A stretch of 64,000 bases of DNA from an uncultured Clostridia bacterium (GCA_934434555.1 CAKRZX010000011.1:3620-67619), one strand, 5' to 3'. Numbered from the stretch's first letter, positions 5,264 to 18,322 are shown. Notes: a model not told the origin generated them from the letters alone. Program-made: numbers and translations.

Positions 5264-6358
5264 ATGGGAACATGGGGAGTTAAACTGTATGAAAATGATA
5301 CTGCATTAGAAGTTAAAGAGCGATTCGATGATTTGCGGAAAGGGAAAAACGTTCGTCAGATTACCGATGCATTAATTGATGAGTATTCGGAAGAGTTGAA
5401 TGACGAATATGATGCACCAAATTTTTGGTTCGCATTGGCAGATATGCAGTGGAATTTAGGACAACTACTGCCGGACGTTATGCATAAGAGAACCGACGCC
5501 TGACGCCGAAAACGGTTCTTTTTGCCGATATTCTGTTTCGTCCTCCTTGAAATACGCCCGGTATTCCTGCGTCGTCCTCAACAAATCTCGACAAAAATAA
5601 TCCGTTTTCGGTGCGAGCAGTTTTAACGGAACAGATTTTTGTCGGGACAAGAAAGACGGTGAAGGTAATATCGGGCATATTTCCAAACCGTCTGCCGCAG
5701 TATCCGGCGAAAATATGTCCGTTAAAACCGTTAGGTGTTCGGCTCTCTTATGCATAAAGAACAGGCACTTGTATGGCTTGACAGAGGCGGAGATTTGCCG
5801 GTATGGAGAGAGGAAAATCCAAAACTTGCGGCAAAAAGAGAAAAGATATTGTTCGAATTACAAAGGAAGTTAAATTCTCCGCAACCGCCCGAAAAAAAGA
5901 TTCCGCAGTACCGCCTTTATAAGTGCGAATGGAGAATCGGAGATATTTTTGCGTATCAATTTAACAGTGAATATGCCAAAGACAATGGCTTTTATCATAA
6001 GTATATTTACTTTGTAAAGGTGGACGAGAAAGTGTGGTATCCGGGACATATTGTACCTGTCGTGTACGTTTACAAAAAAGTTGATGATGCAATGTCAGAC
6101 ATAGATTCATTGAAAAATATCGGCTTTATACCGCAATTTTATGAACCGACAGCATATAAAAACTATCCCGAAATGAAAGTGCAGTATTTGTTGACATTAC
6201 TTAATACATCGCCGCGGGTAATACCGAAAAATCAACTGACGTATCTCGGAAACACGGGCGATGTAAAACGCATTGACGGTGAAAATCAGAATTCGTATGA
6301 TGTAAATTGGAAACGCTTTGAGAAATATATGATTGATAATTTCAAAGCATGGCTTTAA
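5264..6358 (+). pseudogene. DUF4259-like immunity-type protein, split by a 274-bp TIR element
   Basis: Two same-frame ORFs, 5264..5503 (MGTWGVKLYENDTALEV.. , DUF4259-style N-terminus) and 5735..6358. Removing 5481-5756 (element plus one TA) gives continuous ..WNLGQLLPDVKEQALVWLDRGGDL... Confidence 0.7.
5481..5754 (+). mobile_element. MITE-like non-autonomous element, copy 1 (TIRs, TA target duplication)
   Basis: Left end TGCATAAGAGAACCGACGCC; reverse complement of right end TGCATAAGAGAGCCGAACACC. Flanking TA at 5479-5480 and 5755-5756. No credible internal ORF. Its internal blocks are shared with 17663-17928. Confidence 0.65.
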
Positions 6359-6401
6359 TGTTCGGTTGACAGGACAGAGCGCAAAACGCGCGGGAACGAT
6401 T

Positions 6402-6989
6402 ATGGAAAAAGGCAGTTTTTCAAAAGAAAAAATACGTTGGTGGCTTAGATATCTCTTTAATATGCGCAGTGCAAACGATGAGTTGACGTCTTACAGGTAC
6501 CCGATAATAAAAATACTGTTTTTTGCGGTATTGTGGTGTATGCTGACACTTAGAGGGTATGTATTTAATTACGATACGACAATGAAAAAGATTATCGATT
6601 ACGTCATTGTTTCGGGATTTATTCCGCTTGTTGGAATTTGCTCGATAATTGCATTTGCAGAAATGATACTTGTATATGAAAACAAGGAAACCGAAAAGAA
6701 ACTAAAACGAAAAAAGGCTTATGATATGCCTGTTGACAAAATAGTATCACTGGCAGAGGAAAATGATATTATAGAATTTATGATTGCAGCAGATGATAAA
6801 AAAATAAAAATCGGCGCAAGTTCGGATTGTGAGAACAATAGTTTTACATTCTTCGATAAGCGGTATTATATCGGAAAACAGGAATATGAAAACATTGATG
6901 AATTCAGGGAAAAGGTACAGGAATTCTCGGATAACGGAACAATCAAGGTTGTTTCGATTGACGGAGTTTCGCCGAAGTACTACGAGTAG
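6402..6989 (+). CDS. Hypothetical membrane protein
   Basis: ATG 6402 (MEKGSFSKEK..); two central TM helices and a soluble C-terminal domain. The track ORF starts at 6333. Confidence 0.5.
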   Translation: MEKGSFSKEKIRWWLRYLFNMRSANDELTSYRYPIIKILFFAVLWCMLTLRGYVFNYDTTMKKIIDYVIVSGFIPLVGICSIIAFAEMILVYENKETEKKLKRKKAYDMPVDKIVSLAEENDIIEFMIAADDKKIKIGASSDCENNSFTFFDKRYYIGKQEYENIDEFREKVQEFSDNGTIKVVSIDGVSPKYYE

Positions 6990-6992
6990 GGA

Positions 6993-7142
6993 ATGTTTAT
7001 GATTTGCAAACTAATCTCAATCGCTTCATCGGTTATCTCTCTAACGCCGATATTTCAAAGCACTGCTGACGCGGAGAAATGGACAAGTGCGTTTGATTTC
7101 CGCCAAACGGTGCAGAGCATTTGGTCTCCCGAACGGCAGTGA
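6993..7142 (+). pseudogene. Toxin-family N-terminal stub C
   Basis: 49-codon ORF: MFMICKLISIASSVISLTPIFQSTADAEKWTSAFDFRQTVQSIWSPERQ*. Homologous to stubs A and B. Confidence 0.6.
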
Positions 7143-7201
7143 AAGGCGATGAGGCATATCGGTGATTGATGCTTGGCATTTGGTGAAAAGGGTGATAAGT
7201 G

Positions 7202-7957
7202 ATGTTGAAATATAATAAATTGTTAGACGTTATGATTGAGTGCGAAAAAAGGGGGACAGACTATGTTTGCCCGTCGTCTGACAAAGATTTATTACATAAG
7301 TTGTTGGAAGAAATTAATAGTTACGCGGGCACAAATTATCACTATCTTGCTGAATTAGATGCATTTAATATTCCAGGCGCCGGAAGTATTGTGGCTAAAT
7401 ATATCACAAAATTTTCGTCAGAAAGTGTGAGGGGCTATCTGATTCCTCAAATGGTTTCGGATAAAATAAAAGATTGTGATAAGTTGGTTCTTCGATTATA
7501 TACGCATTTTAGATTATCAGATGAATATATTGCCGCGCCCGGAGAACCGGCGCCGGCACATATTTATGTCAGATATGATAACGCGTTTAGAAAACTGAAA
7601 CCGAAAAGACTTGCAAAAGAATTGATGGAGTTTGCACATAGCCCGCGGGATGCATTTTATTTGCCTTTTACGGTGCGGATGCTTGCCTCTTGGAAGATAA
7701 CGGAAATGAAAGACTTGTTGTTATCTTATTGTGCTGATGATTCTTTTTCTGCGCAAGATGTCGGAATTTTTGACGGAGAACAACAGTATTTTCCGTCGTT
7801 TGAATTCATAAAAAGAGAACTAAAATTTACGGCAATCAATGGTTTGAAATATTATCCGACAGAAGAAGTGAGGAGTATTGTTGCGTCTCTTGCAAATAGT
7901 GCAGATAAGGACATTGAATCGGCGGCTAAGCGAACACTAAAAGCACTGACAAAATAA
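7202..7957 (+). CDS. Hypothetical protein (helical, immunity-like by context)
   Basis: About 251 aa, no signal peptide. The track start GTG 7199 is adjacent to ATG 7202. Confidence 0.55.
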   Translation: MLKYNKLLDVMIECEKRGTDYVCPSSDKDLLHKLLEEINSYAGTNYHYLAELDAFNIPGAGSIVAKYITKFSSESVRGYLIPQMVSDKIKDCDKLVLRLYTHFRLSDEYIAAPGEPAPAHIYVRYDNAFRKLKPKRLAKELMEFAHSPRDAFYLPFTVRMLASWKITEMKDLLLSYCADDSFSAQDVGIFDGEQQYFPSFEFIKRELKFTAINGLKYYPTEEVRSIVASLANSADKDIESAAKRTLKALTK

Positions 7958-17242: not shown

Positions 17243-17298
17243 TTTCCGAAATTTGCGAAAATGTCAGGATTAAGGATTCCTTGTACTTATTGCAATGA

Positions 17299-17403
17299 AT
17301 TTGCTTGCTTAAAGAGGGCGAAACCATTATTATGCCCAAAGATGTTCCGCACGCGGTTTACGGCGAAGAAAAGTTCAAAATGCAATTGAGTGTTTCGTAT
17401 TAA
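17299..17403 (+). pseudogene. Cupin-domain gene remnant (C-terminal 34 codons only)
   Basis: ..LKEGETIIMPKDVPHAVYGEEKFKMQLSVSY* is a typical cupin C-terminal beta-strand/His region. The frame is closed upstream at TGA 17296 and there is no start codon. Confidence 0.5.
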
Positions 17404-17424
17404 ACGCGGTGTTTTGAGGTAAGT

Positions 17425-17616
17425 GTGGGCAAATATAATCTGCTTTGGGACTACGTAAGAAAAAACGGAAATGCGACTGTTTCTTTTGATGAGGCGGAGA
17501 AAATCGCGGGAGTGCCGATAGACCATTCTTTTTTGAAGTATAAAAAAGAACTTGACGGATACAGGATAAAGATATCGTTAAAAGAAAAGATAATCAGGTT
17601 TGAAAAGACCGATTGA
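17425..17616 (+). CDS. Small hypothetical protein
   Basis: 63 aa with a GTG start after GAGGTAAG: MGKYNLLWDYVRKNGNATVSFDEAEKIAGVPIDHSFLKYKKEL... Confidence 0.45.
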   Translation: MGKYNLLWDYVRKNGNATVSFDEAEKIAGVPIDHSFLKYKKELDGYRIKISLKEKIIRFEKTD

Positions 17617-17631
17617 GTTTTTGAGGGAAAT

Positions 17632-18322
17632 ATGGAATACAGAAAATTCGGCAATACGGTTAGGGTTGCGGCACCTATCCAAACCACGCCTTAAACCGAT
17701 TCTTTTTCCGCTTTTCTGCGTTGCCGAAACTTGAAATACTCCCGGTATTCCTTCGCTCCGCCGCCTTGAAAAACGAAAAAATAATTCGGTTTAAGGTCGG
17801 AGATTCGTAAAAATGTGCAGATACAAGGAAAAGCGGTGAGATAATATAGGGAAATATATAAGCCGCTTTGACGCCGTAGATGTGCGTTTTTTGCACATTT
17901 GAACGGGTTCGGATGGGTGTCGTAACCCTATTGCGCGTATAGACAGGGGCGAAGAGATTCTCGAAAGCGTAAAAAGAATTGCTTTGGCGGAAAATATAAA
18001 ACTGGCGTCGGTAAGTGCCCTTGGCGCGGTTGACGATTTTACTGTCGGCGTCTATAATGTGGACGAAAAAAAGTATTATTCAAATAATTTTACGGGCAGT
18101 TTTGAAATTGTATCGCTTACGGGAACGATAAACACAATGAACAATGATTTCTACGCCCATTTGCATATGAGCGCGGGCAACGGCAAAGGCGAAGTGTTCG
18201 GCGGACATCTTAATAAAGCCACGGTCAGCGCAACCTGTGAAATGGTGATAACCTTAATAAACGGCAGAGTTGACAGAGAATACGACGAAATAACGGGACT
18301 TAATCTGTTTAAGTTCGTGTAA
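17632..18322 (+). pseudogene. PPC/DUF296 (AT-hook-associated PCC-type) domain protein, split by a 266-bp TIR element
   Basis: ATG 17632 encodes MEYRKFGNTV, then the element follows. Removing 17663-17930 (268 bp, which also corrects the frame 1 to frame 2 offset) gives MEYRKFGNTVIARIDRGEEILESVKRIALAENIKLASVSALGAV.. , a canonical DUF296 N-terminus. Confidence 0.75.
17663..17928 (+). mobile_element. MITE-like non-autonomous element, copy 2 (TIRs, TA target duplication)
   Basis: Left end GGGTTGCGGCACCTATCCAAACC; reverse complement of right end GGGTTACGACACCCATCCGAACC (19/23 match). Flanking TA at 17661-17662 and 17929-17930. It shares internal blocks with copy 1, e.g. CTTGAAATAC(G/T)CCCGGTATTCCT. 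Confidence 0.65.

Follow-up and report, generated by a model that had tools for sequence, protein, structure and literature searches.

The window analyzed here is a 64,000-nucleotide stretch of DNA from an uncultured Clostridia bacterium (GCA_934434555.1, CAKRZX010000011.1:3620-67619), which belongs to a gut-metagenome scaffold (ENA ERZ28613922 scaffold_148, 187.6 kb). It contains two genes that are each broken by a short, strongly structured element, called copy 1 and copy 2 below. An earlier note, made from the sequence alone, had placed two such elements here, with a common core and with unrelated outer ends that pair within each copy. Its default reading was two diverged subfamilies of MITEs (miniature transposable elements bounded by inverted repeats), and it also raised the possibility that the elements are spliced or excised at the RNA level. 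Alignment and folding bore out its description of the elements. The genes, elements, and target sites are as follows.

5264..6358, plus strand: host gene 1, encoding a hypothetical protein with no Pfam match, 272 amino acids (aa) when intact; here split into 5264-5503 and 5735-6358
5479..5480, no strand: TA target of copy 1, left duplicate (from empty versus filled site)
5481..5754, no strand: copy 1, 274 nt, assigned to MITE subfamily 1 from its sequence; termini TGCATAAGAGA...TCTCTTATGCA
5755..5756, no strand: TA target of copy 1, right duplicate (from empty versus filled site)
17632..18322, plus strand: host gene 2, encoding a PCC/DUF296 DNA-binding protein (PF03479), 140 aa when intact; here split after codon 10
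17661..17662, no strand: TA target of copy 2, left duplicate (from empty versus filled site)
17663..17928, no strand: copy 2, 266 nt, assigned to MITE subfamily 2 from its sequence; termini GGGTTGCGGCACCTATCC...GGATGGGTGTCGTAACCC
17929..17930, no strand: TA target of copy 2, right duplicate (from empty versus filled site)

Both copies break plus-strand open reading frames (ORFs); host gene 2, for example, begins at 17632 and picks up again at 17930. We rebuilt the host proteins by deleting each element together with one TA, and compared them with intact homologues. Rebuilt host protein 1 and its intact homologue P0001 are both 272 aa long and 98% identical, and P0001 reads ...LLPDV|KEQA... over the insertion junction. 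For rebuilt host protein 2 (140 aa), the homologues that are intact show 94 to 96% identity. Intact alleles were found without copy 1 (L075-L077) and without copy 2 (L078-L080). The empty copy 1 site is GACGTTAAAGAAC (CCGGACGTTAAAGAACAGG in the DNA encoding P0001), and the filled site is GACGT-TA-[274]-TA-AAGAAC. For copy 2, the empty site is AATACGCTTATTGCGCGG and the filled site is ACGGT-TA-[266]-TA-TTGCGCG. The difference between filled and empty alleles is exactly the element plus one TA at both sites. Both insertions are insertion polymorphisms with a 2-bp TA direct repeat, which is the footprint of a DNA transposon.

The earlier note had also claimed that excision restores the reading frame. 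The intact alleles agree, provided that one TA leaves with the element: the frame is recovered only by removing 276 nt for copy 1 or 268 nt for copy 2. This is because each insertion consists of the element plus one duplicated TA. The split reading frames suggest that both host genes are inactivated. Two genes broken by recent transposon insertions are enough to explain the window, and no new RNA biology is required.

The two copies align with a mean column identity of 74%. Their common core starts on the left at AACC(G)ACGCC and ends on the right at GG(T)GTTCGG. Beyond it, the outermost 10 to 11 nt of copy 1 (TGCATAAGAGA) are unrelated to the outermost 19 to 20 nt of copy 2 (GGGTTGCGGCACCTATCCA). 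Both copies have terminal inverted repeats, as MITEs do. The ends of copy 1 form 13 perfect pairs (11 plus the TA), and those of copy 2 form 20 pairs (18 plus the TA), 3 of which are G·U. These three G·U pairs result from three transitions (A>G, A>G, and T>C) in the left repeat of copy 2 (17663-17682) relative to the subfamily consensus (L190 and L097). With its left repeat altered, copy 2 may no longer be mobile. The folding energies are -112.6 kcal/mol for copy 1 (z -8.4 versus shuffled sequence) and -103.7 kcal/mol for copy 2 (z -6.9). The conserved hairpin that the earlier note had described in both copies is real: TTGAAATACNCCCGGTATTCC occurs exactly twice in the 64 kb, versus zero expected, and its apex motif lies at 5547-5567 in copy 1 and at 17731-17751 in copy 2. 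Promoter and terminator scans gave no signal above chance in either copy. We also considered protein coding inside the elements and rejected it, because the only residues common to the minus-strand ORFs of copies 1 and 2 are those encoded by the palindromic apex.

Both subfamilies have further copies. Subfamily 1 was found in L117 (96% identical) and L175 (92% identical), with the same TGCATAAGAGAACCGA...GGCTCTCTTATGCA ends and TA flanks, and in L060 its right end is attached to another flank. Subfamily 2 was found in L190, L097, and L086 (approximately 94% identical), with GGGTTACGATACCTATCC...GGATGGGTAYCGTAACCC ends. Like MITEs, then, these elements are small and noncoding and occur in multiple copies whose termini, within a subfamily, agree from site to site. 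Because copies elsewhere keep their termini, the ends vary between subfamilies and not among the copies of one. The earlier note had named conserved outer termini in additional copies as evidence against its RNA-level idea, and they do count against it. Contigs of several assemblies break off k-1 nt inside the elements, as expected for repeats. In L097 (684-950 plus flank) and L175 (2861-3123 plus flank), an element of subfamily 1 directly adjoins one of subfamily 2, with one TA in common, and probably one was inserted at the junction of the other.

We consider it very likely that copies 1 and 2 are TA-duplicating, gene-interrupting, short noncoding DNA transposons (MITEs) that represent two subfamilies of one family. 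The TA footprint and the copies with the same termini elsewhere uphold this default reading. Each element inserted at a TA dinucleotide, duplicated it, and interrupted a gene. Each subfamily has multiple copies in the source genome and conserved termini of its own. On this reading, the ends of copies 1 and 2 are unlike because different terminal modules sit on related cores in the two subfamilies, and within a copy they pair because the same transposase must bind both. The earlier note had taken co-varying terminal pairing as a sign of structured RNA, and for the termini this does not hold, because they pair within a subfamily by construction if one transposase must recognize both ends. A DDE transposase of the IS630/Tc1-mariner type may be supplied in trans, as suggested by the duplicated TA and by the Y-TA-R or CTAG targets of relatives. 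A TA/CTAG-type target of IS630/Tc1-mariner transposases is described for RUP and IS630-Spn1 (PMC2229807), and both insertions in the window show the corresponding 2-bp TA duplication with a target of the CTAG or NTAN type. The hairpin inside the elements would probably act single stranded, with a transcript hairpin or a DNA hairpin during mobilization as candidates.

A scan with the apex motif against the genomes of 185,579 species returned 58 loci, about 10 of which look like chance matches in coding sequence. A metagenome scan returned at least 120 loci (counts refer to the matches listed). Relatives are now known from Clostridia, Bacteroidota, Acidobacteriota, and Myxococcota, with TA flanks that are often inside CTAG. 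They include hairpin elements of approximately 165 nt with CTAG or TA flanks in Acidobacteriota, Archangium, Rikenellaceae, Eubacteriales, and Oscillospiraceae. A 273-nt relative (TATAGCCGAAGGGAATCGAACCC...GGGTTCGGCTCCCTTCGGCTATA) with conserved termini is inserted at no fewer than 25 sites in genome bins of Clostridia, and eight of its nine complete copies are intergenic. An Acidobacteriota-type family (CAGTCCGTGGTGAAAGTC...GACTTTCACCACGGGCTG) has at least 53 distinct sites among the matches listed. CTAG is present on the left at 39 of these 53, on the right at 34, and on both sides at 30. In the other families and in the window subfamilies, the target fits Y-TA-R. An asymmetric target, with T before the TA on one side only, had described all six window-type copies (6/6), but with more families it gave way to the symmetric Y-TA-R.

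Some searches among these relatives were negative. The apex motif had no match in viral contigs, and copy 2 and one small relative had no match in plasmids. Single-module relatives were convergent with (12), tandem and opposite to (5), tandem and in the same direction as (2), or divergent from (2) their flanking genes, but these gene calls are crude and give no usable bias. A tRNA-derived origin was also considered, as the terminal GGGTTCGNNTCCC of the 273-nt high-copy relative resembles a tRNA T-arm, and was dropped; the window copies do not have it. As a separate observation, in L004 (1520-1735) a module of the family lies directly upstream of a glmS ribozyme (Rfam, 68.7 bits), with a slight overlap, and the ribozyme precedes a glmS gene.

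The termini of these relatives are interchangeable. Three elements of approximately 165 nt (L008, L094, and L119) are 93 to 97% identical over the inner 100 nt, whereas the outer 20 nt or so at each end are unrelated, and in all of them the ends are self-complementary and flanked by CTAG. The reverse case also occurs, in which a single terminal repeat type is found on different cores. For example, a second apex type (GAATAT-TCCCG-ATATTC) is present in variants whose terminal repeats are those of the main Acidobacteriota-type family (L093 3211-3495, L113 4139-4326, L128 2418-2653, L132 3650-3862, L191 11420-11611, and L090 312-646); the L090 element combines the two module types in one dimer. 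Elements often abut or occur in tandem. The terminal swaps are best explained by modular exchange among co-resident MITEs.

Inside these ends is a hairpin of 80 to 110 nt that is conserved across phyla. Each small relative is one rod-like hairpin, whose apical part, taken on the strand that folds better, consists of CAAGGCGC, an 8-bp stem, GGAAUAC-CGGGN-GUAUUUC, AA, the stem again, and GCAACGCAG. The window elements are predicted to be Y shaped, with a terminal stem and two hairpin modules in inverted orientation. A covariance model built on 27 diverse modules (R1) gave the following matches in the window.

5498..5622, minus strand: conserved hairpin module of copy 1 (apex GGAAUAC-CGGGC-GUAUUUC); R1 82 bits, in the training set
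5611..5743, plus strand: second, degenerate module of copy 1 (apex GGTAATAT-CGGGC-ATATTTCC); R1 35.3 bits, E 1e-7, outside the training set
17676..17806, minus strand: conserved hairpin module of copy 2; R1 105 bits, in the training set

The second module of copy 1 is on the opposite strand from the first, and therefore copy 1 is an inverted dimer. In each window element, a hairpin module of approximately 110 nt is present as an inverted dimer.

In the 27-sequence alignment, the consensus hairpin has 27 pairs, and 20 of these show compensatory double changes. Paired cells amounted to 88.7%, compared with 68.0 ± 1.2% in shuffled alignments and 36 to 51% when the partners were slid. There were 140 double-change cells, compared with 49 in the shuffles. 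Pairing is kept while the sequence changes, although a DNA palindrome would show the same.

Mismatch types, counted from the folds, distinguish the two strands. Outside the invariant apex, the arms have 54 G·U but 18 A·C mismatches on the module strand. In the outer arms, where the sequence is unrelated between families, the counts are 49 and 11. Furthermore, 12 of 13 family representatives fold better on the module strand, by 4 to 21 kcal/mol; the families are partly nonindependent, so the significance of this strand bias is approximate. The window dimers fold equally well on both strands, as two opposed modules would lead one to expect. The bias points to one strand being acted on while single stranded, by selection or by C-to-T mutation with a strand bias, and hints at a role as single-stranded RNA or DNA. 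For the inner hairpin, the compensatory changes and the strand-specific excess of G·U-type mismatches bear out the idea of a structured unit under selection.

A bolder reading is that selection acts on this hairpin of 80 to 110 nt as its unit, and not on the terminal repeats. The hairpin would be a single-stranded RNA or DNA module that has repeatedly gained new TA-specific terminal repeats and has so spread through Clostridia, Bacteroidota, Acidobacteriota, Myxococcota, and, as Correia elements, Neisseria. We regard this as rather unlikely. If it were true, the hairpin could be a handle for a mobilizing or processing enzyme, which would bear on what moves Correia elements.

Several observations count against the MITE reading or parts of it. 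Pfam revealed no transposase among 20 window ORFs. All-against-all ORF comparison revealed no recurrent gene near the apex motif at the 58 genome loci. In the 120 metagenome loci listed, no transposase lay between matching terminal repeats 0.3 to 4 kb apart, and only MITE variants of 188 to 512 nt were found there. A parent autonomous element with matching repeats was not found in the window, at the 58 genome loci, or at the 120 metagenome loci listed. The earlier note had held that a cognate transposase would speak against its RNA reading, and on this point that reading is not refuted. The putative IS630 assignment draws only on the target site, and the IS427 group of the IS5 family, which likewise duplicates TA, is an alternative to it. 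In classical MITE families the termini are more conserved than the interior, and this superfamily shows the reverse, with a conserved core and exchangeable termini. Strand-biased G·T mismatches are not predicted by double-strand cut-and-paste transposition. Finally, the similarity to Correia elements described below is weak, with no nhmmer match and a strict local alignment z of approximately 1.7. The reversed conservation and the strand-biased wobble pairs are also testable leads on how these elements move and on the hairpin's own function.

Some of these points would fit a hairpin-guided, single-strand mobilization like that of IS200/IS605, of REPINs with RAYT transposases, or of integron attC sites. 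An enzyme would recognize the apical hairpin on one DNA strand and cut at the base of the stem, so that the stem and termini would be free to take any sequence that pairs. This would agree with an apex and internal loops conserved across phyla on stems and termini that co-vary or are replaced outright. It would also agree with arm mismatches that are G·T on one strand (49 versus 11, and 12 of 13 family representatives) and with the absence of a DDE transposase from the window ORFs, the 58 genome loci, and the metagenome loci listed. However, the terminal repeat types are conserved units, common to many copies and to different cores, which suggests sequence-specific end recognition, and palindromic Y-TA-R or CTAG targets are typical of IS630. 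In the window dimers the ends are far from either apex, and Correia elements fold equally well on both strands. We judge this mechanism to be very unlikely.

An invertible DNA switch was suggested by one other allele of the copy 1 site. In L065 (ERZ27287394 k141_553184, 2397-2534), copy 1 is present at the same TA in reverse orientation: 2.4 kb of its upstream flank is followed by 138 nt that are 100% identical to its reverse complement, up to the contig end. The crossover must have been within the perfect 13-bp terminal repeat (TA included). When copy 1 is inverted, all 276 nt are open and in phase with host gene 1 (window minus-strand ORF 5465-5755), and L117 and L175 likewise have this frame open. 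The terminal inverted repeats might recombine and flip the segment, toggling host gene 1 between a truncated product and a full-length one with a 92-residue insert, and Correia elements are reported to invert in place (review PMC10969869). Even so, the inverted state is on one truncated contig only, and in L059 the allele at this site carries a stop in the frame concerned. The copy 2 insertion has a length of 268 nt, which is not divisible by three, and all of its frames contain stops. There is no recombinase among the 20 window ORFs scanned and no promoter-like site in either element, and the empty alleles make the segment an insertion and not a resident switch. We treat the open frame of inverted copy 1 as a curiosity and the switch as highly unlikely.

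The inverted allele also bears on orientation. The earlier note had described both copies as being in the sense orientation of their host genes. This is correct in that both are in plus-strand ORFs, but the better conserved module is on the minus strand, and L065 has copy 1 the other way around. An orientation bias, which the note had proposed to look for over many copies, is not apparent: the same site is filled in both orientations and no constraint is visible, although the copies are few. For other copies, the ORFs of the restored sites were too uncertain for a reliable call of host-gene orientation.

RNA-family models gave nothing relevant to the elements. At the gathering threshold, Rfam found only a tRNA in the whole window. 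Copies 1 and 2 and a small relative, searched at E up to 10, and 16 related loci yielded only tRNAs and the unrelated glmS ribozyme. Neither copy matched the group I intron model at E up to 10. For group II introns, the ends (TGCAT...ATGCA and GGGTT...AACCC) lack GUGYG...AY, and there was no Rfam match. Self-cleaving ribozymes (hammerhead, twister, pistol, hatchet, and HDV-like) had no match at E up to 10.

The RNA-level excision proposed in the earlier note, in which self-splicing or processing and ligation would remove the insert from the mRNA and leave the host genes functional, has in its favor the strong structure and paired ends, the location of both window copies inside ORFs, and the covariation and strand-specific wobble pairs of the family, but it is extremely unlikely given the TA target duplication and the intact alleles in near-identical strains at both sites, a frame that needs one TA removed too (a boundary set by no known splicing rule), the lack of any group I, group II, or ribozyme match at E up to 10 and of GUGYG...AY ends, the occurrence of copy 1 in both orientations at one site, the intergenic position of eight of nine complete copies of the high-copy relative, and a best conserved module that is antisense to the host genes.

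Other features of the window were noted. A direct repeat of approximately 75 nt occurs three times on the plus strand (1140-1185, 4918-4992, and 7046-7120), with 89% identity between the two longest and none expected by chance. The repeats alternate with small ORFs of unknown function in the region upstream of copy 1 and around it, and could be a cassette boundary or what is left of a conserved gene end. Two tandem genes with a metallo-beta-lactamase fold (15630-16421 and 16433-17242, plus strand), whose Pfam matches include Anti-Pycsar_Apyc1 (PF23023), are found just upstream of copy 2. A GGGtGRT protein, from a family of unknown function (PF14057, E 1.7e-194), is encoded at 40581-41585 on the plus strand.

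Compared with known systems, the window elements resemble group I and group II introns in being structured inserts in genes that are mobile as DNA. They differ in their target duplication, which is unexpected for introns, and in having neither an intron-model match nor splice-site nucleotides. At 266 to 274 nt, they are also too small for group II introns, which are approximately 400 nt or more. Rickettsia palindromic elements (RPE) are likewise small, palindromic, and inside protein-coding genes, and copy 1 is like them in being a multiple of three (276 nt with the TA) and open in one orientation. However, both window copies bring stop codons in the window orientation, the copy 2 insertion (268 nt with the TA) is not a multiple of three, and most relatives are intergenic.

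MITEs derived from IS630/Tc1-mariner elements, such as RUP of Streptococcus pneumoniae with IS630-Spn1, are closer. They share the TA duplication, the CTAG or Y-TA-R targets, terminal inverted repeats, a multicopy state, and hairpin-forming transcripts, the last of these being predicted here (PMC2229807). The differences are that no IS630-family element with matching repeats was found in our searches, so that the putative link is by target site only, and that across this superfamily the interior is more conserved than the termini.

The most extensive likeness is to the Correia elements (CREE/NEMIS) of Neisseria. Both groups are small and noncoding, with terminal inverted repeats and TA flanks, and both are found within and between genes. 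Both have short and long forms, approximately 106 and 155 nt for Correia elements and approximately 165 nt (monomers) and 270 nt (dimers) here. Copies inverted in place are known for both (PMC10969869 for Correia elements). The inner sequence is co-linear, in the order CAAGGCG, CCGCAG, a small hairpin, CAAGG, GCAACGC, and CTGG. CAAGGCG and GCAACGC are boxes that Correia elements carry. There are differences as well. The 26-bp Correia repeat (TATAGTGGATTAAC(A)5-6...; PMC5039591) is absent here, where the termini are TGCATAAGAGA and GGGTTGCGGCACC, and the apical hairpin is GAATAC-CGGGN-GTATTC here but CAGTAC-AAATA-GTAC in Correia elements. The hosts are gut Clostridia and environmental phyla as opposed to Neisseria. 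An integration host factor (IHF) site, outward promoters, and RNase III cleavage, which cuts the transcripts at the inverted repeats, are known of Correia elements, whereas the promoter scan here was at chance level. We know of no transposase for Correia elements.

The similarity shows only with a structure-aware model or a lenient alignment. Among Correia copies from Neisseria prophage contigs, R1 matched five short-form elements (E 4e-5, 0.011, 0.067, 0.11, and 0.57). These were its only matches outside the window in 209 kb, and all were on the strand reading TATAGTGGATTAACAAAAATCAGGACAAGGCG. When the inner 78 nt of Correia elements were locally aligned with the 27 modules under lenient settings, the score was 20.5, versus 11.7 ± 1.3 for dinucleotide shuffles (0/500), and the reverse complement of the same 78 nt gave no signal. 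The equal folding of Correia elements on both strands counts against homology, as do the nhmmer and strict-alignment results given above. On balance, distant homology between the module and the inner part of Correia elements is likely but not proven. Elements from an uncultured gut Clostridia bacterium are thus tied to a MITE superfamily that spans several phyla and that, at a distance, likely includes the Correia elements of Neisseria.

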